Part shown: positions 6,533-34,326 of the stretch, piece after piece
How positions within the stretch are numbered: position 1 is the first letter of the stretch
Layout of the letters: each line of letters starts with the position of its first letter
Origin: Acidimicrobiaceae bacterium
GTDB lineage: Bacteria; Actinomycetota; Acidimicrobiia; Acidimicrobiales; Bog-793
Assembly (NCBI GenBank): GCA_025463965.1
Contig: JAODBN010000394.1
Span: forward strand, 1-39,932
DNA: 39,932 bases
Reading direction: 5' to 3'
The notes under the pieces: generated by a model
Database searches by the model: none
Told to the model about the DNA's origin: nothing
Seen by the model: only the letters and a program-made list of their open reading frames with translations
Translations under genes and position numbers: made by a program

Positions 6533-6542
6533 GGGCCCGGCC

Positions 6543-16129: not shown

Positions 16130-16158
16130 TTGACTAGACAACTCATCTGTCCTATTTT
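16130..16158 (+). promoter_or_regulatory. Promoter-like TTGACT-N17-TATTTT with an ACTCATCT operator half-site in the spacer
   Basis: TTGACT at 16130-16135, TATTTT at 16153-16158, ACTCATCT at 16141-16148. Lies 52 nt upstream of the PhyH-family ATG (16210). Confidence 0.5.
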
Positions 16159-16209
16159 CGGACGGATGGACAGACGGCAGCAGCACATCCGTGTTGATGG
16201 GGACCATAA

Positions 16210-17022
16210 ATGACGCACCTTGGCCTGCTGGACGAGCCCCTATCGCTGGACAATCATGTCCGGCAGAGCTTCGACGACGAGGGCTTTGTCAAGATCAAGG
16301 GCGTACTGGATCAAGACGTCATCCGGGCGCTCGAGCCGGAGATCACCGAGAAGGTGATCGAGCTCAACACGATCCATCTGCCAATGGAGCAGCGCTCGAC
16401 CTATGACAAGGCATTCCTCCAGGTCGGCCAGCTGCGGTTCCAGAGTGCTGCGGCGCGGGCGTTCGTGTTCTCCAAGCGCCTAGCCCGAGTTGCTGCAGAA
16501 CTGCTCGGCGTGCGTGGCGTGCGGCTCTACTCGGATCAGGCGCTGTACAAGGAAGGTGGCGGTGGGATCACGCCATGGCACGCGGACCAGTACTACTGGC
16601 CCTTCGCGTCGGACCGCGCTTGCACCGTATGGATCCCGCTGCAGGAGACGCCGCTGGAGATCGGCCCCCTCTCTTTCGCTGTGGGAAGTCACCGCTTCTC
16701 CTTCGGCCGCGACCTAGGAATCAGCGACGAATCCGAATCAGCGCTCCAAGGAGCGGTAGAGGCACAGAATTTCGAGGTGGTTGAAGAGCCCTATGAGGTG
16801 GGTGAGGTGAGCTACCACCTCGGCTGGACGTTCCATAGGGCCAGCCCCAATCGCACTTCCATCCCACGACGCGTGATGACGGTCATCTATATGGACGTCG
16901 ACATGGTCGTCGCCGAGCCCTCCAACACCTCTCAAGCCAACGACCTTCGCTTCGAGATGCCCGGTGCCGTTCCCGGGGCGGTGCCCGACACGCCGTACAA
17001 CCCGGAGCTCTACGCGCGCTGA
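16210..17022 (+). CDS. Phytanoyl-CoA dioxygenase (PhyH) family Fe(II)/2-oxoglutarate oxygenase
   Basis: ORF 16210..17022. FDDEGFVKIKGVL N-terminus, WHADQYYW (HxD iron ligands) and a later GSHRF, all typical of PhyH family proteins. Confidence 0.8.
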   Translation: MTHLGLLDEPLSLDNHVRQSFDDEGFVKIKGVLDQDVIRALEPEITEKVIELNTIHLPMEQRSTYDKAFLQVGQLRFQSAAARAFVFSKRLARVAAELLGVRGVRLYSDQALYKEGGGGITPWHADQYYWPFASDRACTVWIPLQETPLEIGPLSFAVGSHRFSFGRDLGISDESESALQGAVEAQNFEVVEEPYEVGEVSYHLGWTFHRASPNRTSIPRRVMTVIYMDVDMVVAEPSNTSQANDLRFEMPGAVPGAVPDTPYNPELYAR

Positions 17023-17281
17023 GACAGTTCCTCGTCGACATGCGTCTCGTCTTCCGACCGGCACACCAGCTGCAGCGCACATGGTGCGCCAACCAACCGC
17101 CGGCGACAACCCGGCGGAACCGGGCGTCATCCTCGTCGCCGGAACCATCTGCCCCCAGCGACGACGGCTCTCGCGCCGCTTCGCGCGAGAGCCGATGTCC
17201 ACGGCATCGACGCCCGCAGCAGGTCTCAAAGCGCGGGCGCGGTCACTGTGGCGGTAAGAGTTGCGGAGATGAGGTGCCAAA

Positions 17282-17977
17282 GTGATGTCTGGGGAGACTG
17301 TTGACGGCAGCGCCCGTGGCGTGCATCTGTCTGCGTCCATCATGTGTGGGGACTTGGGCGCACTACGAGACGAAGTTTGTCGACTGGAAGAGTCAGGCGT
17401 GGACTCGCTCCACGTCGACGTAATGGACGGCAACTTCGTCCCGAACTTGACGTTCGGCCCGGACACCGTCCGAATGCTTCGGGAGGCGACAAGGCTGCCG
17501 CTGCACGTGCACATGATGGTGACTCAGCCAGAGCGCCTCGTCGCTCCATTCGCCGACGCGGGCGCCGATGTGTATCTCTTCCACGTCGAGGCCGAGCCGT
17601 TTCCTGGTCGACTTTCGAACCAGATTGTCAATTCCGGCATGGTGCCCGGCGTGGCAATCAATCCCTTCACCCCGGTTGGGCCGGCGGCAGATCTCGCGCT
17701 TCCCTACGTGCTCGTGATGTCGGTCGAGCCTGGCTTCGCCGGCCAGAAGTGGATCGCCACGACGGAGCGACGAGTCGGAGAGCTCCGAGAAGCGGTGGGG
17801 TCGGCCTCGGTAATCGGCATCGACGGCAACGTGAATCTTGAGCATGCCGCTGGCGCGCGCGACCAGGGTGCGACGCTGTTCGTATGCGGCACCTCGAGCC
17901 TCTTTGGCCGGCCGAACTATCATGCTGCCGTCGACGAGTTCCGCACGCGTCTGATGGCGAGCGCCGGAGTCCGGTGA
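17282..17977 (+). CDS. Ribulose-phosphate 3-epimerase family protein (Rpe/AlsE-like)
   Basis: ORF 17282..17977. LHVDVMDGNFVPNLTFG, MSVEPGFAGQKW and IDGNVN motifs. Confidence 0.85.
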   Translation: MMSGETVDGSARGVHLSASIMCGDLGALRDEVCRLEESGVDSLHVDVMDGNFVPNLTFGPDTVRMLREATRLPLHVHMMVTQPERLVAPFADAGADVYLFHVEAEPFPGRLSNQIVNSGMVPGVAINPFTPVGPAADLALPYVLVMSVEPGFAGQKWIATTERRVGELREAVGSASVIGIDGNVNLEHAAGARDQGATLFVCGTSSLFGRPNYHAAVDEFRTRLMASAGVR

Positions 17978-18002
17978 CGGAGCCGGCAACGGCACGATCG
18001 GA

Positions 18003-18986
18003 TTGACCGCGGTGATCGACGAAGGAGAAACGGAATCGCGCCGTGTCGCGCTCGGCATCGACGTCGGGGGCAGCACCATCAAGGCGGGGGCTGTCGATGC
18101 CTTGGGCCACGTGCTCGAGGTGCTGCGGATCCCCACACCGACAAGCACCACTCGTCCCGAAGAAGTCATTGCGGCGGTGGTCGAGGCGGCATCGCGGACT
18201 ACGGCACGACTGCAGCAGCCGCCGGTCGGCATCGCCGTCTCCACGCCAGCATTTTCCGAGGGCCCGGAGTGGACGCAGCGTCTGTGCTCAAACGTGCCCG
18301 CCCTCGATAACTTTCCGATCCGAGGGCCGCTCGTCGAGGCCTTCGGGCCGTCCGTCCGCTGGGAGTACGACACCAACGCGGCGTTACTCGCCGAGCTGCG
18401 ATTTGGGCAGGCTCGGCAATTCGAGCGCGTCATGTATATGGGCATCGGCACCGGCATTTCTTCGGCCGTGGCAATCGGTGGCGAGCTCGTGCGCCACACG
18501 TTCGCAACCTGCGGGAATACCGGCCATGTGATCGTCGATGCGTCCGGACCACCATGCACGTGCGGCGGTACCGGCTGCCTCGAGGCGGTCACGACTGCCT
18601 GGGCGCTGCGCCGCTCGGCGTCCGAGCTGGCCCGCGCCGGACAGAGCGAACAGCTCGCCGCGCTGTACGCGAAAGGCTGTGAGGTCGACGTGGCGGACAT
18701 TCACCGCGCGGCGGTGGACGGGGACGGCGGTGCCACCCGCCTCCTTGCGACAGCAGGACGTGCGCTCGGCGTAGCGCTGGCCTCCTTGATCCACATCTAC
18801 TTTCCCGACGCCATCATCTTCGGCGGCGGCGTTTCTGGTGCAGGTGAATTCCTTCTCGGTCCGGCACGTGTGGCGCTCGAGCAGCACGCTGCCCCTGACT
18901 GCTACACGCGCCTGCAGGCGTTCGAGCAGGGAAGGCTCGGTCCCGACGCCGGCGTCATCGGTTTGGCGTCCCTTTTCTTCGGATGA
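18003..18986 (+). CDS. ROK family sugar kinase (no N-terminal HTH)
   Basis: ORF 18003..18986. GIDVGGSTIKAG ATP-binding motif and zinc motif GHVIVDASGPPCTCGGTGCLE. The start could be TTG 18003 or GTG 18012. Confidence 0.8.
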   Translation: MTAVIDEGETESRRVALGIDVGGSTIKAGAVDALGHVLEVLRIPTPTSTTRPEEVIAAVVEAASRTTARLQQPPVGIAVSTPAFSEGPEWTQRLCSNVPALDNFPIRGPLVEAFGPSVRWEYDTNAALLAELRFGQARQFERVMYMGIGTGISSAVAIGGELVRHTFATCGNTGHVIVDASGPPCTCGGTGCLEAVTTAWALRRSASELARAGQSEQLAALYAKGCEVDVADIHRAAVDGDGGATRLLATAGRALGVALASLIHIYFPDAIIFGGGVSGAGEFLLGPARVALEQHAAPDCYTRLQAFEQGRLGPDAGVIGLASLFFG

Positions 18987-19208
18987 GGCTGAGGCGCACC
19001 CCGGGCCGCCCGGCTACGTCGGTGGGGCGGCGTACCAAGTCGCCGTGGTCTGCTCGTCCGCGGTGAGAATCCCTCCCGGCGGTTACGCCACGGTGGCTCA
19101 CGACTCACCGCTCGGCTCGCGTTGCAGGTGAGGGAGCGGGGCTCCTCCACGAGGTCTCCCTGCTTCTTTACGGTTCGTTGTAGCTCCGTCCGAGCAGCCG
19201 GTGTGGGA

Positions 19209-19233
19209 TAGAGTAGTGAGCTAGATGAGTACC
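19209..19233 (+). promoter_or_regulatory. Operator-like CTAGATGAGT (19221-19230) overlapping the predicted ATG of the FAD oxidase; TAGAGT -10-like hexamer at 19209-19214
   Basis: An exact copy of the recurring 10-mer. The ATG at 19225-19227 lies inside it. Confidence 0.5.
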
Positions 19234-20628
19234 TGGGAAAAGCAATTCATCGAGCAGTTTCCTGAGTGCGCCCGGCCGCTCGAGGACCAGCTTCTCGACG
19301 TCTGGCCGGTCTCGCTCAAGCGCCTCCGATCGGGACACGGTACGCGCCTTTCTGGCGTCGTCGCCTCGCCGAGGAGCAGCGATGAGGCGGCGGTCATCAT
19401 TCGGTGGTCAGCTCGCCATGAGGTACCCGTCGTCCCACGAGGCGGTGGCTCCTCGGTGACGGGCAGCCCGCTGCCATCGGCCGGGTTCGTGCTGCTCGAC
19501 ACCCGTAGCCTGAATCGGATCGTCGACATTGACGCCGTGGACGGCCTCGTCCACGTCCAAGCCGGCGTCCTCGGTAGCGACCTCGAAGAGGCGTTACAGG
19601 CCGAAGGGCTGACGACGTGGTTCTCGCCGCAGTCGCTCGACCGGTCGACGGTCGGCGGCTGGGTCGCGACGAGGGCGAGCGGACAGTTCTCGTCGCGCTG
19701 GGGTGGGATCGAGGACGCGGTCGTCTGCCTCACCGTCGTGCTGGCGAACGGCGCGATCGTCCGAGTCGGCACGCCGCCCCGAGGTGCAGTGGGCCCCGAC
19801 CTACGGTCGCTGTTCATCGGCAGCGAGGGCGCCTTAGGCGTCATTACGGAGGTCACGTTGCGGGTCTATCCGCTGAGCCCGGTGGCGTTGTCGACGTTCG
19901 CGCTGAAGGACATTCCCTCGGGCCTTGAGGTGATCCGTCGGCTCATGCAGTCAGGTGTGAGTCCTGCCCTACTGCGGCTCTACGACAAGGACGAGGCGTA
20001 CCACCTACAAGCGCCATCACCGGGTTCCGCTCCGATTCTCATCGCCGGCTTCGCCGGTCAGGAGGAGATCGCTGCCGCCGAGCAGCGTGTCGCTCGACGG
20101 TTGCTCGTCGACGCAGAGGCAGAAGACCTCGGTCCGGATGCCGCTGAGGCGTGGTTCAAGAACCGCTATGACTTCTCGCGTCTCGAGGCGCTCCTGGACA
20201 AGCCAGGGGGCTACGCGGAGACGATCGAAGTCGCCTTCGGCTGGCGTCGGGCGCACGGCTCCTACCTCGAGCTGAAGGAGGCACTCCGACCCCGCTCGGA
20301 TGAGGTGCTCGGCCACTTCTCGCATGCGTACAGCGACGGGATCTCCTGCTACCTCATCGCCACCGGTGAGCTCGACACCGACCCTGCGGCGCTCGAGCGG
20401 CTCGAGCAAATCTGGCGGGTGACGATGGAGACGGCGCTTGCATGTGGGGCGGTCATCTCGCACCATCACGGGGTGGGGACGGCCCGACTGCCGTACCTGG
20501 CCCGCCAGCTCGGTGGCGGCTACGACATCCTCACGACGCTGAAGCACGCGTTGGACCCTCGACAGCTCTGCCACCCGGGCAGCCTCGTCGACCCGGAAGG
20601 CCAAGGTAAACCGCCATGCGGACTGTGA
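19225..20628 (+). CDS. FAD-binding oxidoreductase (FAD_binding_4 / GlcD-, alkyl-DHAP-synthase-like)
   Basis: ORF 19225..20628. VVASPRSSDEAAVIIRWSARHEVPVVPRGGGSSVTG is the PCMH-type FAD-binding signature. C-terminal HHHGVG motif. Confidence 0.8.
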   Translation: MSTWEKQFIEQFPECARPLEDQLLDVWPVSLKRLRSGHGTRLSGVVASPRSSDEAAVIIRWSARHEVPVVPRGGGSSVTGSPLPSAGFVLLDTRSLNRIVDIDAVDGLVHVQAGVLGSDLEEALQAEGLTTWFSPQSLDRSTVGGWVATRASGQFSSRWGGIEDAVVCLTVVLANGAIVRVGTPPRGAVGPDLRSLFIGSEGALGVITEVTLRVYPLSPVALSTFALKDIPSGLEVIRRLMQSGVSPALLRLYDKDEAYHLQAPSPGSAPILIAGFAGQEEIAAAEQRVARRLLVDAEAEDLGPDAAEAWFKNRYDFSRLEALLDKPGGYAETIEVAFGWRRAHGSYLELKEALRPRSDEVLGHFSHAYSDGISCYLIATGELDTDPAALERLEQIWRVTMETALACGAVISHHHGVGTARLPYLARQLGGGYDILTTLKHALDPRQLCHPGSLVDPEGQGKPPCGL

Positions 20629-22493
20629 CCAGAGAACACGTCCTTCACCGGCTGCGCATGGCAACCGATAGCGGACGCGCCCTGCTCGCCTGTGGCGCAG
20701 CCAACGGACTCGTCGCCGCGGCGGCCGAGGCGGGTGGCGCCGACCTCATCGTCGTCTACAGCTCGGGCAAGTTCCGGGCGGCGGGGCGCAGCTCACTCAG
20801 TGCGCTGATGCCGTATGGCAATGCCAACGAGATCGTCCTCGCCATGCTGCCCGAGATCCGAACTGCGCTCGGCGACTGCCCCGTCGTCGCGGCGCTATGC
20901 GGTACCGACCCGACGACCTCGCTCGAGGCGCTTGTCAGGGCGGCGGCAGAGCGCGGTGCGAGCGGCGTGCAGAACTTCCCGACGATCGGTATGTTCGGCC
21001 ACGAATTCCGAGAGGATCTGGAAGCGACCGGCATCTCGTTCGAGCAGGAGATCGAGTTGCTCCGAGCGGCGCGTCGAGCGGATCTCCTCACCTGCGGCTA
21101 CGTCACCAACGAAGAGGACGCAGCTGCGATGGCACTGGCGGGCGTCGACGTGATCGTTCCCCTCCTCGGCGTGACGCGATACCGGAACGGCGACGACGCT
21201 GTCGCGGACGCGGCGGCTCGCATTTCGGCGCTGGCGGACGCAGCGCTCGCTGTTCGCGACGACCTGCTGCTCCTGTTCCACGGCGGACCGGTTGCAGAGC
21301 CGTCCCAGGTGCAACGCTGCTTGAAGCTGGTCCCCGCTCTTCATGGGTATATCGCGGCATCCTCGGTCGAGCGCACGCCGGTGGCCCGTGCCGTTTCCGC
21401 GGCGGCGCGGGCCTTTGTCGAGGTGCGTCGCGCTGCAGGCGAGCATCCCATTGCCGAGGCGTCGCCCGACTTCAGCACGCCGCCGCCGGACCTCCCGCTC
21501 GAGCTGACCGCGGACACCCTCGCGGAGTACCTGGCGAAGAAGGGAATTGTCGCAGCGGCTGACAACGTCGAGGTGGACGAGCTCAGTGGCGGCCTCTCGA
21601 ACGTCGTGCTGAGGTGGCGTTCCAGTGGGCAGTCGGGCGTGATCAAGCAGTCGAGACCGAGGTTGCGGGTCGCCGAGGAATGGCGCGCCGACGTCCGGCG
21701 CATCGTGAACGAGTACGAAGCCATCAGCTACCTTGCCCCCCGAGTTCACCGCGGTCGCCTGCCGACGATCACTTTCACGGACCCGACGCTGCTCGCGTTC
21801 GGAATGGAGGAGGTTTCCGCCGACGCACGGCTCTGGAAACCGGAGCTGCTTGCCGGCACCATCCACGAGGAGCGCGCGCAACAGGCGGGAGCCTTGCTCG
21901 CCGACATCCACAATGCGACTCGAGACGAGCCGACCTTGCGACGGCGCTTCCTCGCCGAGCCGCTGCTGACGCAGAATCGACTGGACCCGTGGTACCGGGC
22001 GGCCGCTCGTTGCCACCCCGACCTCGCCGCATCCTTCGAGTACGCGATCTCCCGGCTGCTCGAGGTGAAACAGGTCCTCGTGCACGGTGACTTCGTGCCG
22101 AAGAACCTCTTCCTGCTCGAGGGAGAGCTCTTTGTCGTCGACTTCGAAGTCACGCACTTCGGCAATCCGGGCTATGACGTCGCGACGTTTGTCAACCACA
22201 TGATGCTGAAGGGGTTCGCATTGCCCGAGCACCGTCAGGCCTTCGGCCGGTTGGCCTCGACCATGTGGGAGAGCTACCGCAACCTCTGGGACGGCGACCA
22301 GGCCGTGGTCCAACAGGAAGCGCTCGTACAGCTGGGCGCGCTCATGCTCGCCCGCGTCGACGGAAAGTCCAAAGTCGAATACCTCGCAGGCACAGAGCAC
22401 GCCGCCGAGGCACGTGACTTCGGGCGGTGGCTGCTGCGGAACCGCCCGGCATCCGTCGGTGAAGTACTCACTCGCTACGCCGGTCATCTCTAG
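20616..22493 (+). CDS. Fusion protein: N-terminal phosphoenolpyruvate-hydrolase-like TIM barrel (PF09370-like) + C-terminal APH/methylthioribose-kinase-like kinase domain
   Basis: ORF 20616..22493 (625 aa) overlaps the upstream gene by 13 nt. N-terminus: GAANGLVAAAAEAGGADLIVVYSSGKFRAAGRSSLSALMPYGNANEIV...GVQNFPTIG...HGGP. C-terminus: ELSGGLSNVVLRW...VLVHGDFVPKNLFL...VVDFEVTHFGNPGYDVA (Brenner HGD and DFE motifs). Confidence 0.75.
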   Translation: MRTVTREHVLHRLRMATDSGRALLACGAANGLVAAAAEAGGADLIVVYSSGKFRAAGRSSLSALMPYGNANEIVLAMLPEIRTALGDCPVVAALCGTDPTTSLEALVRAAAERGASGVQNFPTIGMFGHEFREDLEATGISFEQEIELLRAARRADLLTCGYVTNEEDAAAMALAGVDVIVPLLGVTRYRNGDDAVADAAARISALADAALAVRDDLLLLFHGGPVAEPSQVQRCLKLVPALHGYIAASSVERTPVARAVSAAARAFVEVRRAAGEHPIAEASPDFSTPPPDLPLELTADTLAEYLAKKGIVAAADNVEVDELSGGLSNVVLRWRSSGQSGVIKQSRPRLRVAEEWRADVRRIVNEYEAISYLAPRVHRGRLPTITFTDPTLLAFGMEEVSADARLWKPELLAGTIHEERAQQAGALLADIHNATRDEPTLRRRFLAEPLLTQNRLDPWYRAAARCHPDLAASFEYAISRLLEVKQVLVHGDFVPKNLFLLEGELFVVDFEVTHFGNPGYDVATFVNHMMLKGFALPEHRQAFGRLASTMWESYRNLWDGDQAVVQQEALVQLGALMLARVDGKSKVEYLAGTEHAAEARDFGRWLLRNRPASVGEVLTRYAGHL

Positions 22494-22553
22494 GACATGC
22501 CGCCGCATCGGCGCGCCTACCACGGGCATCGGCCACCCAGTGATCTTTCCGCG

Positions 22554-22608
22554 TTGACACCATCACGACGAGCTGTACACTCACTCATCTAGCTCGGCGA
22601 GCTAGATG
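22554..22608 (+). promoter_or_regulatory. Promoter-like TTGACA-N16-TACACT followed by a perfect 10-3-10 palindrome CATCTAGCTC-GGC-GAGCTAGATG
   Basis: TTGACA at 22554-22559, TACACT at 22576-22581, palindrome at 22586-22608 (contains ACTCATCTAG at 22583-22592). Lies upstream of the SBP gene, whose RBS is GGAGGGGGAG. Confidence 0.65.
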
Positions 22609-22726
22609 GCATCGGTGCCTGAGCCGAGGGGCGCAGAGGAAGGATTCACGCCACTCCGGCCGAACCCAGCGCCGACGTCCGGCTGGGTACTTTTTCGTAA
22701 GCGCTGCTTGGACTAGGAGGGGGAGT

Positions 22727-24067
22727 ATGAGAAGGCTGAAGAGAGCCGCCATCTCGGCGGGAGTAGCGGTCGCATCGCTCGCCGGTATGGGCGGGATCGC
22801 TGGGGCGAGCCAGGGATCCCATCACAAGAACGTCACTGAGCCGACGATCACGGTCTGGGACCAGAACACGACGAGCAACCTGGACCCGATCTACAACCAC
22901 CTCGTCTCACTGTTCGAGAAGCAGTACCACGTGAAGGTCGATCGCATCACGAAGCCCTTCACGCAGATCCTGCAGCAGCAAAAGCTGGCGCTGTCGGGCC
23001 CGAATCCCCCGGACATCGTCCAGTCGAACCAGGGCTACGGTGCCGAAGGCCCAGAGGCCGCTGCCAAGCTCATCGTCCCGCTAGACAAGTATGCCAAGCA
23101 GTACCATTGGGCGAGTTGCCAGCCCTCGTCGATCTTGAATGGCGGGGATTTCAGCTCGGACGGCAAACACTTCGGCAGCGGCCGGCTCTACGGGGTTTCC
23201 GACATCCTCAATTTAGTTGGGGTGTACTACAACAAGGCGCTGCTGAATAAGATCCACGTCTCCCAACAGATTTCGACGCTCACGGATTTCCAGTCCGTGC
23301 TCGCCAAGGCCAAGAAGGCTGGCATCACACCGATCGCCTTCGGCGATCTCGAGCAGTGGCCCGGCATCCACGAGTACCAGAGCCTCTGGGATGTCTACGC
23401 CCCGAGCGCCCAGGCCCTGACCCGCTACGTCTACGGCACCGGCCCAGCCACCGCCGTCACGCCATACGCGAAGCAGGCGGCCACCACGCTGCAGACCTGG
23501 GCCAAGGACGGCTACTTCGAAAGCGGCTTCAACGGGGTCACCTACGAGAACGGCACGAACGCGTTCCTACACGGGAAGGCGCTGTTCTACATCGACGGCA
23601 ACTGGGTGAATGGCTCGGTCGCCCCGGTCCTGGGCAAGAACGTCGGCGTAATGCTCATGCCCGAGGCGAAGGCGGGGGCACCGGTCCTTGCCACGGGCAG
23701 CGGCGGCAATGCGTACGTGATTGCAGCCCGTTCCAAGCACCAGGCCCTCGCGGCGGAGTATCTGAACTTCATCGCCTGCTCGAGCACGGCGGCCAAGTAC
23801 TTCATCTCGCAAGGGCAGGTTCCGCTGTACCTGCCGAAGTCCGTCGTCGCAGGAGTGCAGTCCGGCACCACGCTGGCACAATGGATCCACCTGTACAACC
23901 AGGTCGCCGCTGACAACGGCGTAATCATGTTCATGGACCTCTCAACAGACGACGGCACCACGTACATCGGCCAGCAGCTTCAGTCGCTGCTTGGTTTGAA
24001 GATGCAGCCGAGCAGCTTCGTCCAGGCAATCGAGTCCGACTACTCGCATTTCCACAGCTCGCTCTGA
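22727..24067 (+). CDS. ABC transporter extracellular solute-binding protein, family 1 (carbohydrate type)
   Basis: ORF 22727..24067. Signal peptide, then ITVWDQNTTS...; size and composition are typical of sugar SBPs. Two MalFG-type permease genes follow. Confidence 0.8.
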   Translation: MRRLKRAAISAGVAVASLAGMGGIAGASQGSHHKNVTEPTITVWDQNTTSNLDPIYNHLVSLFEKQYHVKVDRITKPFTQILQQQKLALSGPNPPDIVQSNQGYGAEGPEAAAKLIVPLDKYAKQYHWASCQPSSILNGGDFSSDGKHFGSGRLYGVSDILNLVGVYYNKALLNKIHVSQQISTLTDFQSVLAKAKKAGITPIAFGDLEQWPGIHEYQSLWDVYAPSAQALTRYVYGTGPATAVTPYAKQAATTLQTWAKDGYFESGFNGVTYENGTNAFLHGKALFYIDGNWVNGSVAPVLGKNVGVMLMPEAKAGAPVLATGSGGNAYVIAARSKHQALAAEYLNFIACSSTAAKYFISQGQVPLYLPKSVVAGVQSGTTLAQWIHLYNQVAADNGVIMFMDLSTDDGTTYIGQQLQSLLGLKMQPSSFVQAIESDYSHFHSSL

Positions 24068-24085
24068 GACACTGAGCATTCGACG

Positions 24086-25003: not shown

Positions 25004-25824
25004 TCGCTCGATTGCGTGGCAACACGAACTACGTCATTCTCTCGTTCTTCGCGGTGGTTGCGCTCTATCCTCTGATCGGAAGTGCGTTCGTCGCCCTTTC
25101 TCCGCAGGGCTCAGTGACATCCGGCATTTTTCCTTGGCCGTCACACTTCACTTTTTCGAACTTCAGCGCTGCCTGGCACCAGGCGTCGCTCGGAGGCGCC
25201 CTCGCGAATAGCGCCGTGGTCGCCATAGCCGTTACCGTGGCGGCGACCGTGCTTTCGACGCTTGCCGGCTACGCCTTTGGAACCTTGAAGCTGCCTGCCG
25301 GACGAGTGGTCTTCTACCTCTTCCTCACGGGTCTGATCATGCCGTACGAGTCGATGATCATTCCGTTGTACTTCGACATGCGCCGTCTCAATCTCGTCGA
25401 CAGCTACTGGTCCCTGATCTTGCCGGAGACCGCGCTGTACCTCGCATTCGGGATCTTCTGGATGCGCGCCTTCTTCCAGTCGATCCCGTCGGAGCTCCTC
25501 GAGGCGGCTCGGATCGACGGGGCTTCCAACGTGACGATCCTCAGGCGGGTGCTCGTCCCGATCGCACGCCCGGCGATCTCGACCATGACGGTCCTGTTCT
25601 TTGTATTCTCATGGAACGAGTTCCTCCTGCCGCTCGTAATGCTCTCGTCCTCGGCGAAGCAGACCGCCACGCTGGCACTCGGTGTGTTTCAAGGCCAGTA
25701 CAACACGAACGTCTCGCTGCAGACGGCAGCAGCGCTCTCGGTCGCCATCCCGGTAATCGTCATCTACGTGCTCTTTCAGCGCCAATTCATCCGTGGGATG
25801 CTCTCGGGATCCCTAACGGGGTGA
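25000..25824 (+). CDS. Carbohydrate ABC transporter permease (MalG/UgpE-like)
   Basis: ORF 25000..25824. ATGA overlap with the upstream permease. EAA loop LEAARIDGASNVTILRRVLVPIARPA. Confidence 0.85.
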   Translation: MIARLRGNTNYVILSFFAVVALYPLIGSAFVALSPQGSVTSGIFPWPSHFTFSNFSAAWHQASLGGALANSAVVAIAVTVAATVLSTLAGYAFGTLKLPAGRVVFYLFLTGLIMPYESMIIPLYFDMRRLNLVDSYWSLILPETALYLAFGIFWMRAFFQSIPSELLEAARIDGASNVTILRRVLVPIARPAISTMTVLFFVFSWNEFLLPLVMLSSSAKQTATLALGVFQGQYNTNVSLQTAAALSVAIPVIVIYVLFQRQFIRGMLSGSLTG

Positions 25825-25854
25825 CCCGAAGCTCATCGAGCTCGCTGACCGAGC

Positions 25855-27381
25855 ATGAGCACGACCCTCCGGTCATCGCTGCCGTTGCGGCCCGCGAAGC
25901 CAGGTGTTGAGCCGATGCAGACGCCCAGTTCCTCGCGAGCGTACCGGCGCGTTCTGATCTACGGGGCGAGCCGCGACACGGCAACGCTCGGCTCGGTACT
26001 CGCAGCCGGCGGCGCCGATGTGGACTTCGTCCAGCCGACGCCGGTTTCCGGTTCGCTCGCCGCGGAGTTTCCCGCCTTGCGGACGAAGCTTCGAGTCGCC
26101 GAGCCCGCTGAGATGGCTGAACACCCGTTTGACTATGACGCCGTCTTTGTGGACGCGTCGTACGACGGGATCGTTCCACCGGAGAAGCTGTGGTGCGCGA
26201 TCGGGGCGCAGCGAGCAGGCGTCCTCGTCTCCTCCGTCGCAGATTACGTGTTGGCGCATTCGAGTGCGCTCACGATTGGCGTCACCGGCTCGGCCGGTAA
26301 GACCACGACAGCCTCCCTGATCGCCCACATCTTGGACTCGGCTGGCCGGACTGTGCACATTGCTTCTGACCTGCGACCGCAGACGAACCGCTGCCCGAAC
26401 TACGAGATCCTACGGGCGCTCCCGGAAATGGCTCCCACCGACGTGCTCGTCGCTGAGCTGACGAGCGTCTATCTGTCCTTCATGCAGACGAGCCCGAAGA
26501 TCGCGGTCGTGACGAACCTGTGGCCGGAGCATCTGGAGTGGCATGGCTCGATGGCCGCCTATGTAGCGGCGAAGCAGACCATCCTCCGCCATCAGCAGAG
26601 CGATGATTGGGCGGTCTTGAACGGCGACGATCCCGCAGTCCGAAAGCACTTCGCGTCGCCGTGCAGGCGGTTGGCACTCTTCGGACGTCAGGACCTCGAC
26701 CATCCCAACTGCGTCTTCCTCTCGGGGGACATCGTCTATGTCCGTTGGGGTGGTGACGATGAACAGATCATGCTCGGGCAAGAGCTGCACGACGACGACC
26801 CGTACGCACTTAACGTGTTGGCGGCGGTTGCCGCGGCGAAGGCGGCAGGCGTCCAAAACGAGGCGTTGGCCGGGACGCTGGCGACGTTCACCGGCGTCGC
26901 GCAGCGTGGTGAGCTCGTTGGTGAGGTCGCCGGGGTCCGGGTGTTCAATGACGCAATGGCGATGTCGCCGGTCAAGGTTAAGCGCAGCCTCGAGTCGTTC
27001 AGCGATGGGTCCGTAGTCCTCATTGCCGGCGGGGAGGCGACGTTCCCGAACGAGGTGCTGCACAGCTCGCCGGAGGCACGGGCGCAACTGGAGCAGTTGG
27101 CGGACACCATTTCGAACAAGACCGTCGCCGTGATCCTTTACGGTGAGGGGGGTCGCCTCCTGCGGAGCGTGCTACTCGACCGGCAGATCGAGAGTCCCGA
27201 GTTGGTCGAGGTCGCCGACCTCTCTGCGGCCGCCGCTGCGGCCGCCGCTGCGGCCGCAGCGCGGGGCAGAGATGGAACGGCGCTTCTTTTTGCTCCGCTG
27301 TTCTATGTGCCGCTCGAGGAGCGTTCGCAGATGGGTCGACGGCTGCTCCGCGGGCTCGCGCTCGTGCAACGCGAAGGCTGA
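25855..27381 (+). CDS. Mur ligase family protein (MurD-like paralogue) with C-terminal poly-Ala tract
   Basis: ORF 25855..27381. Rossmann-like N-terminus (RVLIYGASRDTATLGSVLAAGGADVDF), ATP-binding GVTGSAGKTTTASLIAHIL, and a central TNLWPEHLEWHGSMAAYVAAK typical of Mur ligases. ATG 25915 is an alternative start. Confidence 0.75.
   Translation: MSTTLRSSLPLRPAKPGVEPMQTPSSSRAYRRVLIYGASRDTATLGSVLAAGGADVDFVQPTPVSGSLAAEFPALRTKLRVAEPAEMAEHPFDYDAVFVDASYDGIVPPEKLWCAIGAQRAGVLVSSVADYVLAHSSALTIGVTGSAGKTTTASLIAHILDSAGRTVHIASDLRPQTNRCPNYEILRALPEMAPTDVLVAELTSVYLSFMQTSPKIAVVTNLWPEHLEWHGSMAAYVAAKQTILRHQQSDDWAVLNGDDPAVRKHFASPCRRLALFGRQDLDHPNCVFLSGDIVYVRWGGDDEQIMLGQELHDDDPYALNVLAAVAAAKAAGVQNEALAGTLATFTGVAQRGELVGEVAGVRVFNDAMAMSPVKVKRSLESFSDGSVVLIAGGEATFPNEVLHSSPEARAQLEQLADTISNKTVAVILYGEGGRLLRSVLLDRQIESPELVEVADLSAAAAAAAAAAAARGRDGTALLFAPLFYVPLEERSQMGRRLLRGLALVQREG
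27226..27261 (+). repeat. 12-bp tandem repeat GCGGCCGCCGCT x2 plus a degenerate third copy (three NotI sites) encoding an 11-Ala run
   Basis: Read directly from the sequence; lies inside the Mur ligase-like CDS. Confidence 0.8.
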
Positions 27382-27392
27382 CGCGGATCCCG

Positions 27393-27427
27393 TTGCAACT
27401 CATCTAGATCTCTGATAGAGATGACAA
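27393..27427 (+). promoter_or_regulatory. Operator-like imperfect palindrome ACTCATCTAGATC-TCT-GATAGAGATGAC with TTGCAA -35-like hexamer
   Basis: ACTCATCTAG at 27398-27407 is an exact copy of the recurring 10-mer, in reverse orientation. The second half-site, GATAGAGATGA, is degenerate. Lies directly upstream of the PdxA-family gene (27429). Confidence 0.55.
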
Positions 27428-27428
27428 C

Positions 27429-28445
27429 ATGGGATCTGACGTGATGGCACCTCCGCTAATTGCGCTCACCCTGGGCGACGTCAGCGGCGTTGGCCCCGAG
27501 CTCATTGCGTTGGCTCTTCGGCGCCAAGAAGACATCGCGATTTGCCGGCCGGTGGTCATCGGCTCGGCGAAGATCTTCGCCGAGCGCGCTGAGGCGGTGG
27601 CTGCGCCGGTCGAAGTGCGCGTCATCGGCGACCTCGACGAGGCACGCTTCGAGCCCGGCGTCGTCGATCTGATCGATCCCTTCGGAAGCAATGTCGAGGT
27701 CCCCTCTGTCGGGCAGGTCGATCCGGCGGCAGGCAAGTTCGCCGCTCGCTGCCTCGAGGTCGCGTTCGAGCTCGCGCTGGAGGGCAGGATCGCAGGCGTC
27801 GCCGGTGCACCGCTCAACAAGGAAGCATTCCGCCGCGCCGGGTACAACTACATCGACGAGATCGCCTTCCTGAGCGAGTTCACGCGAAGCGAGGAACCGC
27901 GGTTATTCGGGGTGCTGAGGGGCATGATGACGACCAACGTGACCCTGCACATCCCCTTCAAGGACGTCCCGGCGCAGATAACGCAGCCCAACGTCGAGGC
28001 CTCGATCGAGGCGATGCTCGCCGTGCTGGCCAAGGCCGGCAAGTCCTCCCCGAAGGTGATCGTCGCCGCCCTCAACCCCCACAACGGCGAGGGCGGTCTC
28101 TTCGGCAACGAGGAGATCGACTTCATTCGGCCTGCCGTCGAAGCGAAGCGTGCTGCCGGCTTCGATATCACCGGTCCCTTCCCCGCGGACACCCTGTTCC
28201 CGATGGCACTCGCTTCAGGGATGGACGGGGTCGTCTGCATGTACCACGACCAGGCGAACATTGCTCGCAAGCTCGGCGGCTTCACCGGAAGCGCGAGTGC
28301 CTTCATCGGCCTGCCGGTGCCGTACGCGACGACGGCGCACGGCACGGCATTCGACCTCGTTGGCACCGGCAAGGCGGACCCCTCCAGCTTCCTCACCGCT
28401 TTGAGCTTTGTGGTCGACCAGTCCCAGGCGCGCACGGACGCATGA
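27429..28445 (+). CDS. PdxA family NAD-dependent 4-hydroxy(thre)onate-4-phosphate-type dehydrogenase
   Basis: ORF 27429..28445. LIALTLGDVSGVGPELI N-terminus, ALNPHNGEGGLFG, and HDQANIARK and TTAHGTAFD motifs characteristic of PdxA/PdxA2 proteins. Confidence 0.8.
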   Translation: MGSDVMAPPLIALTLGDVSGVGPELIALALRRQEDIAICRPVVIGSAKIFAERAEAVAAPVEVRVIGDLDEARFEPGVVDLIDPFGSNVEVPSVGQVDPAAGKFAARCLEVAFELALEGRIAGVAGAPLNKEAFRRAGYNYIDEIAFLSEFTRSEEPRLFGVLRGMMTTNVTLHIPFKDVPAQITQPNVEASIEAMLAVLAKAGKSSPKVIVAALNPHNGEGGLFGNEEIDFIRPAVEAKRAAGFDITGPFPADTLFPMALASGMDGVVCMYHDQANIARKLGGFTGSASAFIGLPVPYATTAHGTAFDLVGTGKADPSSFLTALSFVVDQSQARTDA

Positions 28446-29311
28446 CCGTCGAGGCGCTGCACGGCGCCGAGGTGGCGATCGACGTCCGCTGTCTGCTCGG
28501 TGAGTCTCCCGTCTGGCACGCCCCGGCAGAAGAGCTGCTCTGGGTGGACATTCGCAACGCCACGCTGCACAGGTGGTCGTACCGCAGTGGCAACACCACG
28601 ACCGTCGAGGTCGGCCACTCCCTCAGCGCGGTCGCGCCCCGGGCGTCCGGCGGCTATGTGGTCGCGACGCGTCTCGGCTTCGGCACCGTGGACGAGGAGG
28701 GCAAGTTCGACATGCTCGCGTTGGTCGATGCCGGTCTCGCCGAGCATCGCATGAACGACGGAAAGTGCGACCGACAGGGGCGCTTCTTTGCTGGGACGAT
28801 GTCCGAGCGCCGCTTGCCCGGTGCCGGCTCCCTCTACCGACTGGATCCGAACGGGAGCGTGGCCCGCGTGCTCCGTGGCGTCACCATCTCCAATGGGCTC
28901 GACTGGAGCCCGGACGACTCGATCATGTACTACGTCGACAGCGAGGCGGCCGGTCTCGACGCCTTCGACTTCAACCACGACACTGGCGAGGTCACGGGAC
29001 GGCGGCGACTCGTCGAGATCGATCGCCGTCTTGGCCTCGCGGACGGGATCGCTGTCGACGAGGACGGGTGCATCTGGGTGGCGCTGCACTCGGGCGGTGC
29101 GGTGCATCGCTACAGCCCGACCGGCGCGCTGCTCGCACGGCTTGAGCTCCCCGTCGCAGTGGTCACGAGCTGCGCCTTCGGGAGCAGCGACCTCGGCGAT
29201 CTCTACATCACCACCGCTGTCCGCCCGAACGAGCACGAAGATCTCGCTGGGGCATTGTTTCGCTATCCGGCCGGGGTGAAGGGCTTCCCCGGTCGGTCCT
29301 ATGAAGGTTAG
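28442..29311 (+). CDS. SMP-30/gluconolactonase/LRE family lactonase
   Basis: ORF 28442..29311. ATGA overlap with the upstream gene. LGESPVWH, NDGKCDRQGRFFAGTM, SNGLDWSPD and ADGIAVDEDGCIWVA motifs. Confidence 0.85.
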   Translation: MTVEALHGAEVAIDVRCLLGESPVWHAPAEELLWVDIRNATLHRWSYRSGNTTTVEVGHSLSAVAPRASGGYVVATRLGFGTVDEEGKFDMLALVDAGLAEHRMNDGKCDRQGRFFAGTMSERRLPGAGSLYRLDPNGSVARVLRGVTISNGLDWSPDDSIMYYVDSEAAGLDAFDFNHDTGEVTGRRRLVEIDRRLGLADGIAVDEDGCIWVALHSGGAVHRYSPTGALLARLELPVAVVTSCAFGSSDLGDLYITTAVRPNEHEDLAGALFRYPAGVKGFPGRSYEG

Positions 29312-29319
29312 GAGTCGTC

Positions 29320-29952
29320 GTGACAACCATCGTTGACGAGGAGCGGCGGAACCAGCTCGCGAGCCTCGGCGCGGCTGCCGTGTACGAGTCGCTCGGGCGC
29401 CGCAACGCACTTTCGCCCGCTATCAAGCCGCTGTGGTCACCCGCTGTTCTTGCGGGGCCGGTGTTCACGGTCGAGGCCGTCGTCGCCGACAACCTTGCCC
29501 TGCACCACGCCGTTGCAGAGGCACCGGCGGGAGCCGTCATCATCGCCTCGGTGTCCGAGCCGGGCCCGGTGCCGCTGTGGGGCGATCTCCTGTCCACGAT
29601 CTCCAAGGAGAAGGGCATCGCCGGCTTGGTCATCGACGCGATGGTGCGGGACTGCGACCGCATTCGCGCCCTCGAATTTCCGGTCTTCGGCCACGGCACC
29701 TCCCTCTATGGACCCTCGAAGAACGCCTGGGGAAGGCTCGGCGTGGACATCGCGATTGACGGCGTCACGATCCGACCGGGGGACTGGGTCCTCGCCGATG
29801 GCGACGGCGTCGTGATCATTCCCGCCGACGAACTCGAGTCGGCGCTCGTCGCCGCCAGCGCGGTGCGCGACCGGGAGCGCGAGATCGTCCGCCGAGCAGC
29901 GCTCGGCGAGAGCACGCTCGTGCAGCTCAATCTCGGCCAGCCGCCGGCATGA
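29320..29952 (+). CDS. RraA family protein (4-hydroxy-4-methyl-2-oxoglutarate aldolase / oxaloacetate decarboxylase-like)
   Basis: ORF 29320..29952. WGDLLSTISKEKGIAGLVIDAMVRD and GDWVLADGDGVVIIP are typical of the RraA/HMG aldolase family. Confidence 0.8.
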   Translation: MTTIVDEERRNQLASLGAAAVYESLGRRNALSPAIKPLWSPAVLAGPVFTVEAVVADNLALHHAVAEAPAGAVIIASVSEPGPVPLWGDLLSTISKEKGIAGLVIDAMVRDCDRIRALEFPVFGHGTSLYGPSKNAWGRLGVDIAIDGVTIRPGDWVLADGDGVVIIPADELESALVAASAVRDREREIVRRAALGESTLVQLNLGQPPA

Positions 29953-29992
29953 CGCCCCGCTGCCGCAAGGTGCTGACCCACACCGATCTGTA

Positions 29993-31075
29993 GTGGGAGC
30001 ACACCCCGTGCACGGCGAGAGCGATCCCGTGCCGCCGCAGCTTGAGACGAGACACGTCGGCAGGTCTGGCCTCGTCGTCACCGAACTCGGCTTCGGTGCG
30101 GGACCGCTGGGTGGTTTCGCCGGTCGTCCCGTCGACGAAGCGAGTGCCGAGACGACGCTCGGCGCGGCATGGGATGCCGGCATCCGTTACTTCGACACTT
30201 CGCCGTGGTACGGCCTCGGGATGAGCGAGCACCGCGTCGGGCAGTTCTTGCGCGGAAAGCCCCGAGATGCGTTCGTCATCTCGACCAAGGTCGGGCGAGT
30301 TCTTCACCGGCCGGGTCCGGGCAAGGCATCCACTGCGACGTTCTGGACAAGCGCGCTCCCGTTCGACGCTCACTTTGACTACCGTCACGACGCAATCCTG
30401 CGTTCCTACGAAGACAGCCTCCAGCGCCTCGGCCTTTCACGCGTCGACATTCTGTTTGTGCACGACCTCGAGCCGGAGGCACACGGCGGTGATGAAGGTT
30501 TCGACCGCCGCGTCGAGGAGCTGGAGGCGGGGGGCGGCTTTGCGGCGCTCGAGGCGCTACGGACCGCCGGCGAGATCGGGGCAATCGGTGCCGGCGTGAA
30601 TGACGCGACCGCTGCATTGGCGCTTGTCCGACGTTTCGACCTGGACGCCGTGCTGATCGCGGGTCGCTACACGCTGCTCGAGCAGGGCGCGCTCGAGGCG
30701 CTCTTGCCGGTCTGTGAGGAGCGCAAGATCGGGGTCGTCATCGGCAGCGTGTTCAACTCGGGCATCCTCGCAGGTGGGGGAGCCGAGACCAGCACCTACG
30801 AGGGCGAGCCTGCTCCCGAGGAGATCGCCGAGCGAGTGGGTCAGCTGCAGCATGTGTGCTCGCGCCATGGCGTCGCCCTCGGTAGCGCTGCCCTTCGCTT
30901 TCCACTTGCCCACCCCGCGGTCTGCAGCGTGATTCCCGGCGCAGCCCGCCCCTCCGAAGTCACCGAGAATGCCCGGCGCCTGCATTGGTCGATCCCGCCG
31001 GCACTTTGGGAGGAGCTGCGGTCATCGGGGCTCATCGCCAGGGAAGCACCAATACCGGCTGACGACGTCGGCTGA
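29993..31075 (+). CDS. Aldo/keto reductase (D-threo-aldose / L-fucose 1-dehydrogenase-like)
   Basis: ORF 29993..31075. LGFGAGPLGG, IRYFDTSPWYGLGMSEHRVGQFL and ISTKVGR motifs. The true start is probably a little downstream (GTG 30008). Confidence 0.8.
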   Translation: MGAHPVHGESDPVPPQLETRHVGRSGLVVTELGFGAGPLGGFAGRPVDEASAETTLGAAWDAGIRYFDTSPWYGLGMSEHRVGQFLRGKPRDAFVISTKVGRVLHRPGPGKASTATFWTSALPFDAHFDYRHDAILRSYEDSLQRLGLSRVDILFVHDLEPEAHGGDEGFDRRVEELEAGGGFAALEALRTAGEIGAIGAGVNDATAALALVRRFDLDAVLIAGRYTLLEQGALEALLPVCEERKIGVVIGSVFNSGILAGGGAETSTYEGEPAPEEIAERVGQLQHVCSRHGVALGSAALRFPLAHPAVCSVIPGAARPSEVTENARRLHWSIPPALWEELRSSGLIAREAPIPADDVG

Positions 31076-31083
31076 GCAGTTGC

Positions 31084-31899
31084 TCAGCGCTTGGCGGCTC
31101 CGCCGTACGGCCAGCTGTGTGGATCGATCGGCGAGTTGAAGCTGAGCTTTACCCGCTCACTCTGGTAGTAGGCGAAGCCACATTCAATCGGGTCGTCCTC
31201 GAGCCCGTACATCACCGCCTTGCTGACAAGCAGGGGGTCGTTCGGTGCGGCGCCGAGGAGGTCGCCGCGCTCGCCCGCGAGTTCAGCTCCGAGCTCGGTC
31301 GTGACTCGTGCAATCTGTATGCCGAACATCGTGTACAGCAATTCGAGCAGCGACGTCTGTCCTAGATCCGCCCCGAGCAACCGACTGAACCGCTCCGAGT
31401 CGTAATACGCCTCGTCGATCGCGACCGGCCGGTCGAGGACTGAGCGCAGCCGGGTGATCCGGACCGTCTCGGATCCGCGGCGCAGACCGAGCGCATCGGT
31501 CACCTCGGCCGTCGCTGTCACGAGCTCGGCATCAAGCACCTTGGTGGTGGTGTCCAGCCCGAGATCCCGCAGGTAGTGCGAGAGGCTCGCCGTGGTGAGG
31601 AACTCTGCCGACAGCGTCGACGAGGTGACCTGGTAGCCGCGGCCATGTAGCGGGCGCACGAACCCCTGGTTCGCGAGCATGTGAACCGCCTGTCGCACCG
31701 TCAGGCGGTTGACGCCGAAGTGCTCGCTGAGGTCGCTCTCGGAGGGGAGCAGATCGCCGGGGCGGTAGATCCCGCGCCAGATGTCCGTCAGAACCGAGCG
31801 GCGAATCTGCTCGTAGAGCGATGTCGTGCCGCGTCGCAACGGCGACTCCCGCCGGGATCCGGTGCCTTCTGTCGTCTTGCGCGGACGGGTCGCCATCAC
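31084..31899 (-). CDS. GntR family transcriptional regulator, HutC subfamily (wHTH + UTRA effector domain)
   Basis: ORF 31084..31899. LPSESDLSEHFGVNRLTVRQAVHMLANQGFV wHTH followed by a ~150-aa UTRA-like region. Confidence 0.85.
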   Translation of the reverse strand: MMATRPRKTTEGTGSRRESPLRRGTTSLYEQIRRSVLTDIWRGIYRPGDLLPSESDLSEHFGVNRLTVRQAVHMLANQGFVRPLHGRGYQVTSSTLSAEFLTTASLSHYLRDLGLDTTTKVLDAELVTATAEVTDALGLRRGSETVRITRLRSVLDRPVAIDEAYYDSERFSRLLGADLGQTSLLELLYTMFGIQIARVTTELGAELAGERGDLLGAAPNDPLLVSKAVMYGLEDDPIECGFAYYQSERVKLSFNSPIDPHSWPYGGAAKR

Positions 31900-31970
31900 T
31901 GTCTTTCTTCGCGCGAGCTCGGTACTCGCTACCCACCTATCTCAGCACATTGTGCATGTGGACTGGAGAC

Positions 31971-32000
31971 CTTAGGCTAACATAGCTAGATGAGTTATAT
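31971..32000 (+). promoter_or_regulatory. Divergent control region: CTAGATGAGT (31986-31995) inside TTAGGC-N17-TTATAT promoter-like spacing
   Basis: An exact copy of the recurring 10-mer, between the GntR gene (start 31899, minus strand) and the serine-hydrolase gene (32034, RBS GGAGGA). Confidence 0.55.
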
Positions 32001-33098: not shown

Positions 33099-33206
33099 CC
33101 CGCACACCACGTGACGCTGGCGCGGCACGGTCCGTTGTCGCGTCTGAGCATCTTCCACCGCGTCCTGGTCGAAACGATGACGTCGAGCACCTAAGGAGAG
33201 AGATCC

Positions 33207-34295: not shown

Positions 34296-34326
34296 ACGAG
34301 GGCCGAGGCCGGGCTCCGACCGCATC

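Follow-up and report, generated by a model that had tools for sequence, protein, structure and literature searches.

The 39,932-bp contig JAODBN010000394.1 from an Acidimicrobiaceae bacterium, which was analysed over its whole length and is referred to here as the window, has a G+C content of 66.6% and encodes, at 16-36 kb, a locus of five putative transcription units and a regulator of the GntR/HutC family. A 10-nt word, CTAGATGAGT, recurs at the promoter regions of this locus, and its relationship to the regulator is described here. The genes of the window that bear on this relationship, with assignments by Pfam and NCBIfam, are as follows.

77-9625: conserved actinobacterial core (uvrC, rapZ, gap and tpi)
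16210..18986, plus strand, unit 1: PhyH dioxygenase, ribulose-phosphate-3-epimerase-like protein and ROK kinase (Pfam)
19225..22493, plus strand, unit 2: FAD-linked oxidase and a fusion of phosphoenolpyruvate (PEP)-hydrolase-like and APH-kinase domains, the two genes overlapping by 13 bp (Pfam)
22727..27381, plus strand, unit 3: solute-binding protein, two permeases and MurD-like ligase (Pfam)
27429..31075, plus strand, unit 4: PdxA-like dehydrogenase, SMP-30/gluconolactonase-like protein, RraA-like aldolase and aldo-keto reductase (Pfam)
31084..31899, minus strand: GntR/HutC-family regulator with winged helix-turn-helix (wHTH) and UTRA domains
32034..35241, plus strand, unit 5: beta-lactamase-fold hydrolase, two-domain SIS protein (GlmS C-terminal-like; SIS1) and EamA transporter (Pfam, NCBIfam)
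32034-36748: beta-lactamase-fold hydrolase, GlmS-like SIS protein, EamA transporter and a second SIS protein (SIS2)

The regulator gene likely starts at the ATG at 31896, giving a protein of 270 aa with an N-terminal GntR-type wHTH (PF00392, 5.7e-17, residues 28-91) and a C-terminal UTRA domain of the chorismate-lyase fold (PF07702, 1.7e-27, residues 113-251). Its best solved relatives over the full length are NagR/YvoA (1.3e-22) and then DasR (1.2e-18). No other DNA-binding regulator or sigma-factor gene was detected in the locus. The family of this regulator comprises 21 members at E<=1e-40, and the wHTH is almost invariant among them (...PGDLLPSE(S/K)...FGVNRLTVRQAVHALANQG...GRGYQV); DNA specificity should therefore be common to the family, which makes footprinting across loci legitimate.

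Four exact copies of CTAGATGAGT are present in the window, at 19221-19230 and 31986-31995 on the plus strand and at 22583-22592 and 27398-27407 on the minus strand, just as a preliminary description of this DNA had them, and all four lie at promoter regions of the 16-36 kb locus. The number expected by chance is 0.03, none of 100 dinucleotide-preserving shuffles reaches four, and 648 kb of unrelated control loci contain no exact copy. Approximately 12% of the window is intergenic, which gives P ~2e-4 for four of four exact copies being centred there. The preliminary description placed every copy in a gap between genes, which holds for the centres of the four exact copies, but the copy at 19221-19230 extends over the ATG of the FAD-linked oxidase gene (19225). 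Once oriented, the four copies have 12 bases in common, ACTCATCTAG(C/A)T, and the copy on the PhyH side has ACTCATCT in common with them; the sequences flanking these 10-12 bp are unrelated. The bare 10-mer is not enriched in the window when up to two mismatches are allowed (19 found vs 16.3 expected), and the signal therefore rests on the exact and the extended sites. In an unbiased comparison of 7-mers between non-coding and coding DNA over nine loci, AGCTAGA ranks first, and ACTCATC, AGATGAG, CATCTAG and ATCTAGC are also within the top 30. This comparison used a crude gene caller that mis-called some genes and counted excess DNA as non-coding, so the enrichment is conservative.

The copies belong to five sites (S1-S5), which were scored with an 18-column weight matrix trained on 11 sites, all of them from loci other than the window.

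16141..16168, plus strand, S1: weak composite ACTCATCTGTCC ... CGGATG, equal to CATCTG-N13-CGGATG (14.6 bits)
19215..19230, minus strand, S2: ACTCATCTAGCTCACT, overlapping the FAD-linked oxidase ATG (19.6 bits)
22583..22611, plus strand, S3: composite, with S3a ACTCATCTAGCTCGGC at 22583-22598 (17.6 bits)
22596-22611, reverse complement, S3b: inverted arm TGCCATCTAGCTCGCC, which includes the degenerate copy 22599-22609
27398..27426, plus strand, S4: composite, with S4a ACTCATCTAGATCTCT at 27398-27413 (21.2 bits)
27411-27426, reverse complement, S4b: inverted arm TGTCATCTCTATCAGA, which includes the degenerate copy 27414-27425
31980..31995, minus strand, S5: ACTCATCTAGCTATGT, between the divergent regulator and beta-lactamase-fold genes (22.6 bits, the best match in the window)

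The S1 half at 16141-16148 matches 8/8 bases of the conserved half. The three degenerate copies listed in the preliminary description are real but unlike in kind, one being this half-site and the other two the inverted arms of S3 and S4. The four highest-scoring matches in the window are, in order, S5, S4, S2 and S3, and S1 ranks seventh; all five sites are classed as intergenic in the matrix scan, S2 overlapping a start codon. Within the 40-kb window no strong copy is found outside the locus. No copy had been noticed inside coding sequence in the preliminary description, but moderate matches do occur there, at 14516-14533 (16.1 bits) and 16879-16896 (14.3 bits). These agree with the rate in the controls, where 22 matches of at least 14 bits in 648 kb correspond to approximately 1.4 per 40 kb. 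The former, AAGCTCACCTAGTCGACT on the minus strand, lies within the DUF4238 coding sequence; no other match in coding DNA looks strong, and this one is judged to be due to chance.

Each of the five sites coincides at least in part with a spacer between -35 and -10, a -10 hexamer, a predicted start of transcription or a start codon, and binding should therefore block RNA polymerase. S1 occupies the -10 of TTGACT-N17-TATTTT (16130-16158) together with its spacer, ahead of the PhyH gene, which starts at 16210. S3 starts 2 nt past the -10 of TTGACA-N16-TACACT (22554-22581) and covers the predicted transcription start of the operon for the ATP-binding cassette (ABC) transporter and the Mur-ligase-like protein. 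This promoter had been noted before and was recovered independently by a promoter scan, in which the promoters at S1 and S3 were the only two sigma-70-like ones found at 16-36 kb. S4 occupies the spacer and -10 of a promoter-like element, TTGCAA-N17-TAGAGA, read directly from the sequence, and S2 lies directly downstream of a -10-like hexamer, TAGAGT (19209-19214). The 31986 copy lies, as first described, between the GntR/HutC gene and the divergent beta-lactamase-fold gene. The centre of S5 is 46 bp upstream of the ATG of the latter (32034) and approximately 91 bp upstream of the regulator ATG, and S5 is a putative operator for both autoregulation and the beta-lactamase-fold operon. The ATG of the PdxA-like gene (27429) is located 8 nt past the -10-like TAGAGA at S4, which suggests that the PdxA-like mRNA may be leaderless. 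The FAD-oxidase ATG (19225), 11 nt past TAGAGT and with no evident ribosome-binding site, also looks leaderless or nearly so, and the TAG within the 19221-19230 copy is an in-frame stop immediately before it.

Orthologues of the regulator are encoded in a set of related loci. L001 is from a GTDB Acidimicrobiaceae metagenome-assembled genome and is the sole locus from the genome-collection scan with the Mur-ligase-like protein of the window, L002-L016 are metagenomic contigs with regulators 55-86% identical, and a metagenome scan added three orthologues (L017-L019) on short contigs with little upstream DNA. A further 77 loci with regulators approximately 30% identical served as controls. Gene content is kept but rearranged across the related loci, where the solute-binding protein, permeases, beta-lactamase-fold hydrolase, SIS1, ROK kinase, epimerase, MurD-like, PdxA-like, RraA and SMP-30-like proteins recur at 50-74% identity. 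The box AC[T/A]CATCTA[G/T] is found upstream of the orthologous regulator, PdxA-like, solute-binding protein, beta-lactamase-fold and SIS genes, in independent metagenomic loci whose regulators are 55-86% identical.

L002-L006 (regulator 86%): GCTCATCTAGCTAGGC, at the position of S5, with the regulator gene on one side and the beta-lactamase-fold gene on the other
L001 and L007-L009 (regulator 66-67%): ACACATCTA-N11-TAGAT(G/A)TGT, between the SIS and regulator genes
L007 (regulator 67%): a direct pair of copies, located 8 and 21 bp ahead of the PdxA-like gene
L016 (regulator 68%, partial): ACTCATCTAGCT, 192 bp upstream of the solute-binding protein gene
L016: one copy in the divergent region between the PdxA and epimerase genes
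L016: ACTCATCTATCC, before the SIS1 orthologue
L016, 16546-16561: GTTCATCTAGATGAGT, 36 bp before the beta-lactamase-fold gene
L011 (regulator 55%): ACTCATCTAT, 42 bp before the regulator gene

A separate site precedes the SIS1 orthologue in L001, L007 and L016, and sites of the PdxA orthologue are present in L007, L016 and L013. The matrix also recovers sites outside its training set, in L013 at 25 bp before the PdxA gene and in the Ldh2/MFS and kinase/regulator divergent regions, and in L014 at 52 bp before the PfkB gene. Conserved sites, including those of the regulator gene itself, thus occur in L001, L002, L007, L011, L013, L014 and L016, which is the pattern by which comparative genomics recognises a regulon.

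A consensus was derived from 17 sites of the clade with 61-86% identical regulators, with right-half matches counted by hand. Each unit site is a pseudo-palindrome of 14-16 bp around a central CTAG, and its consensus is aACTCATCT-AG(C/A)Tna, that is, A(-8) C(-7) T(-6) C A T C T followed by A(+1) G/T(+2) C/A(+3) T(+4) n A(+6). The left half (-8 to -1) is near-invariant and the right half is degenerate, matching the mirror of the left at 4.0 of 8 positions on average vs 1.8 by chance, with the matches concentrated at +1, +2 and +4 and weakly at +6. At S3, S4, L001 and L007 two units abut head to head with the strong halves outward and the centres 14 bp apart, forming a 29-bp inverted repeat, CATCTA-N11-TAGATG, which is matched with no mismatch at S3 and one at S4; S1 is a looser version, and L007 and L011 contain direct pairs offset by 13 bp. 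As a whole operator, CATCTA-N11-TAGATG fits S3, S4, L001 and L007 but fails at S1, S2, S5, L002 and most L016 sites, and it is read here as two abutting unit sites. S3 contains a perfect palindrome at 22586-22608; initially given as 10-3-10, it is better described as 11-1-11, CATCTAGCTCG-G-CGAGCTAGATG. The idealised 16-bp palindrome that was proposed with it is absent from the window, where the sites are strongly asymmetric, but 15 of its 16 bases are realised in GTTCATCTAGATGAGT of L016.

The likeness to NagR (YvoA) of Bacillus subtilis includes the GntR wHTH and UTRA architecture and, in the operator, the central TCTAGA, its register and the kind of asymmetry. NagR recognises the palindrome GTGGTCTAGACCAC, whose G-7, G-5 and G-4 make contact with Gly69, Arg38 and Arg48, respectively; the protein meets the central TCTAGA on the backbone only, with no base-specific reading, and natural dre sites are asymmetric, position 4 being kept in both halves and the outer positions in one only (PMC4333415). 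The resemblance of the core to HutC-family boxes, remarked on in the preliminary description, is borne out for the NagR and DasR operators (PMC4333415). In contrast to NagR, the outer half-site is CTCA here and GTGG in dre, overall identity is approximately 30%, and the dre-type GG at -5/-4 is absent, these positions being C and A. In an ungapped alignment, Arg38 and Ser47 of NagR correspond to Ser55 and Asn64, and Arg48 and Gly69 to Arg65 and Gly86. The clade with 50-57% identity has Lys at the Arg38 position. Operator position -5 is C in the sites of the Ser clade and T in most sites of the Lys clade, as in ACATATCTA, and this single evolutionary contrast is no more than suggestive of a contact between the residue at the Arg38 position and base pair -5.

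The phosphate of N-acetylglucosamine 6-phosphate (GlcNAc-6-P) is bound by NagR via Thr90, Arg133, Arg135 and Ser165-Tyr167. These phosphate-clamp residues are conserved here, aligning with the family-invariant Ser107, Arg150, Arg152 and Ser183-Leu184; among the sugar-contact residues, E222 and Y228 are conserved and F89, E145 and Y167 differ. We infer a phosphorylated inducer other than GlcNAc-6-P, plausibly one made by the ROK or the APH-type kinase of the regulon. The targets here are PhyH, FAD oxidase, ABC transporter, MurD-like, PdxA-like, SMP-30-like, RraA-like, aldo-keto reductase, beta-lactamase-fold and SIS genes, rather than nagA, nagB and nagP or other genes of GlcNAc and chitin utilisation. 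NagA was not found in the locus, and the SIS proteins score far under the NagB-II cutoffs. Because the half-site, the Arg38 equivalent and the target genes differ, the regulator is classified as a HutC-subfamily member that is not an orthologue of NagR or DasR. With DasR of Streptomyces, likewise a HutC repressor of an actinobacterium, it would share a regulon of several operons and a 16-bp palindrome centred on TCTAGA; it differs in its outer half-site and its targets. The sites seen here all lie within one locus, whereas DasR, a global regulator, has many sites; the dre consensus of DasR is of the TGGTCTAGACCA type.

The operator consensus of the HutC subfamily is GT-M-TA-K-AC (Rigali et al., as cited in PMC4494728). 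Compared with it, the centre C-TA-G is exact and the dinucleotides are at the same 4-nt distance, with flanks AT/(A or C)T instead of GT/AC. According to the same survey, extra adjacent boxes beside the main site are common in the HutC family, at 7-12 nt, whereas the second boxes here are centred 13-14 bp from the centre of the first site; its site tables, in the portion examined, contain no group with a ATCTAGAT core (PMC4494728). A literature search for the operator word together with GntR or HutC found nothing relevant.

The 77 distant HutC loci were fetched via the shared peptide FGVNRLTVR. Four exact copies of ATCTAGAT, three of them independent, occur within approximately 350 bp of the regulator gene in these loci, and the density is four in 48.5 kb near the genes vs one in 554 kb elsewhere. 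Perfect or near-perfect palindromes with this core lie directly beside genes for approximately 30% identical regulators with an FGVNRLTVR(Q/K)A helix, as in the following cases, and are a hint that the recognition helix FGVNRLTVR may be linked to a ATCTAGAT core.

L084, 1866-1883 (equal to L094, 766-783): GATTCATCTAGATGACT
L027, 5896-5913: GACATCTAGATATC
L058, 340-357: CTTATCTAGATAAG

Footprinting, cross-validation of the matrix, promoter placement and homology to NagR and DasR together make it very probable that the recurring word is the high-information half of the predicted operator of the HutC-subfamily GntR repressor encoded at 31084-31899. The same lines of evidence speak for one repressor acting on several transcription units, which the preliminary description predicted to be at least five operons; the PhyH site is the weakest of the set. 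Several observations weigh against this interpretation. S1 has no central TAG, its arm spacing is 2 bp longer than that of S3 and S4, and a convincing second half or arm is missing from S1, S2 and S5. The PhyH, FAD oxidase and PEP-hydrolase/APH genes are absent from the orthologous loci and are assigned to the regulon by single sites, and neither S1 nor S2 can be checked by conservation, the FAD-linked oxidase gene behind S2 having no orthologue in the other loci. There is no clear site in L010 (regulator 56% identical) and none in the approximately 150-195 bp available upstream in L017 and L018 (regulators 66%). The CATCT columns of the frequency matrix were partly fixed by the procedure through which sites were collected. 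The Arg48 equivalent is kept although operator position -4 is A and not the G of NagR, and the NagR contact map is therefore not simply transferable. Finally, the sequence was found in DNA runs of a soil metagenome only and in no RNA runs.

The location of the motif, always in promoter regions, the 12 bp common to four copies and a conservation that is asymmetric as in promoter elements would also be expected of a -10 or -35 box for an alternative extracytoplasmic function-type sigma factor dedicated to the locus. This is very unlikely, as the orientation of the motif is mixed (S1, S3 and S4 have the direction of the downstream gene, S2 the opposite one), its location with respect to the sigma-70-like hexamers is not fixed and ranges from the spacer to past the -10, inverted pairs are present at S3, S4, L001 and L007 with a near-perfect palindrome in L016, and the locus has no detected sigma-factor gene. 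The inverted repeats could instead act as RNA, in the form of hairpins in the 5' untranslated region, attenuators or terminators, and for S3, which would be transcribed from its position downstream of the predicted -10, a hairpin of -18.3 kcal/mol (z = -2.25) is predicted, with one of -14.4 kcal/mol (z = -3.46) for S1. S4, S2 and S5 fold no better than shuffled controls (z = -0.01, 0.39 and 0.55), so that folding is not a common feature of the sites; what is conserved is a word of 10-12 nt that may lie on either strand, the sites are not followed by a T-tract, the terminator scan returned none of these positions, and the orthologues conserve single boxes without a partner. A role as RNA is accordingly highly improbable.

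That the sites are real operators bound by another transcription factor encoded elsewhere, possibly a paralogous HutC regulator, is quite unlikely. L013 does contain two such paralogues in one locus, and cross-recognition is conceivable given that distant HutC proteins with the same recognition helix adjoin similar ATCTAGAT palindromes. Nevertheless, each informative locus pairs the box with an orthologue of this regulator, the positions of the box include one immediately in front of the regulator gene, and the locus in the window has one regulator gene only. Four identical 10-mers could in principle also stem from a dispersed repeat, as remnants of a short repeat or mobile sequence, or from chance recurrence, and would then have no regulatory role. 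Against this, only 10-12 bp are common to the copies and their flanks are unrelated, the chance expectation is far below the number found, and the box is kept at orthologous promoters where the proteins are only 50-70% identical, all of which makes this explanation extremely improbable.

Assignment of the genes to the local repressor follows from the position of the sites. Unit 1 is assigned by S1, the 259-bp gap after the PhyH gene containing no site, and includes a glucokinase-like ROK protein of 327 aa without an N-terminal HTH. The second gene of unit 2 (20616-22493, plus strand) encodes a 625-aa fusion of a PEP-hydrolase-like TIM barrel (PF09370) and an APH-type phosphotransferase (PF01636), an unusual combination that was not seen in any orthologous locus examined. 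The Mur-ligase-like protein of unit 3 matches the NCBIfam murD-like model at 1.8e-46, under the curated cutoff. A sequence at 25829-25846, AAGCTCATCGAGCTCGCT, lies in the 30-bp gap between the second permease and Mur-ligase-like genes and matches 10/12 bases of ACTCATCTAGCT; at 11.8 bits it is insignificant against the control rate, and it could be a weak internal operator. The intergenic gaps of unit 4 are -4, 8 and 40 bp. Unit 5 has a site in front of its first gene only, and SIS1 and the EamA transporter are counted in the regulon because co-transcription with the beta-lactamase-fold gene is assumed. SIS1 matches the GlmS isomerase domain at 5.7e-39 and FrlB at 3e-6. The regulon had been thought to extend from PhyH to at least the serine hydrolase and SIS genes, but its right boundary is set by no site and no site supports the inclusion of SIS2. 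A copy with one mismatch, CTAGAGGAGT at 35383-35392, which the preliminary description did not list, lies within the gap of 415 bp that precedes SIS2; its matrix score is below 8 bits, and it was therefore rejected as a site.

The third-position G+C content (GC3) is 0.92-0.95 in the uvrC/rapZ/gap/tpi core and falls to 0.75-0.85 from approximately 10 kb onward (10203-39932), which includes the whole regulated locus. The locus and its neighbours, an OGG-like glycosylase gene and the DUF4238 gene, may be a horizontally acquired island. The paralogous HutC regulators of L013 are encoded at 2411-3211 and 5583-6434 (P0011, P0018), and next to its Mur-ligase-like gene this locus also encodes a DUF1537-type kinase, an Asp/Glu racemase and an Ldh_2 dehydrogenase, a gene set that hints at a substrate containing a D-amino acid. 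In L011 (10790-10995) and L019 (approximately 1190-1215), of the 55% clade, a longer block, CTAGACTAACCCACATATCTAGACCTGT, is conserved upstream of the PfkB gene; it holds two CTAGAC boxes and looks nearer to the classical GTCTAGAC core. The loci also resemble those of FrlR, FrlB and FrlD for Amadori compounds (fructosamines), which have a HutC-type regulator, a two-domain SIS protein, a sugar kinase and an ABC transporter. The kinase in this gene set is ROK here and PfkB in the 55% clade, and to our knowledge frl operons have no MurD-like, beta-lactamase-fold, PdxA-like, RraA-like or SMP-30-like genes; the resemblance is only a lead.

For this repressor we infer binding, its negative sign, the stoichiometry at double sites, a phospho-sugar effector and the identity of the substrate. 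If the dimer works as in NagR, the conserved left half of a site would be read by one of its winged-helix domains while the other would sit on the degenerate right half, and at S3 and S4 two dimers probably bind on abutting sites. The five units would thereby be repressed, with the regulator's own gene included via the divergent region, and derepression would follow the binding of a phosphorylated pathway intermediate to the UTRA domain.

It is tentatively proposed that the regulon belongs to a catabolic pathway of soil Actinomycetota (Acidimicrobiia-like) that has not been described before. The MurD-like ligase, beta-lactamase-fold hydrolase, GlmS-like SIS protein, ROK kinase and PdxA-, RraA- and SMP-30-like enzymes are conserved together, a combination suggesting that the substrate may be a peptide, a compound derived from the cell wall or an amino acid that is glycosylated. 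The proposal extends to a HutC clade with a new specificity, CTCATCTAG, which might bind as two abutting dimers on 29-bp composite operators, and to a Ser/Lys switch at the NagR Arg38 position that would track C/T at -5. If the assignment of the operators is correct, approximately 17 genes of mixed and partly puzzling annotation would be tied into one co-regulated unit, among them a Mur-ligase homologue in a catabolic setting, the PEP-hydrolase/kinase fusion and the PdxA-like and RraA-like enzymes, the conserved core indicated by the sites being the transporter, PdxA-like, beta-lactamase-fold, SIS and regulator genes. General understanding of how HutC regulators act is unchanged, this being a well-known kind of system with a distinct half-site, which would add one more operator specificity and a candidate specificity-determining residue to the HutC recognition code. 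The regulon would also give a concrete lead to the substrate of this uncharacterised sugar-type pathway of catabolism in uncultured soil actinobacteria.

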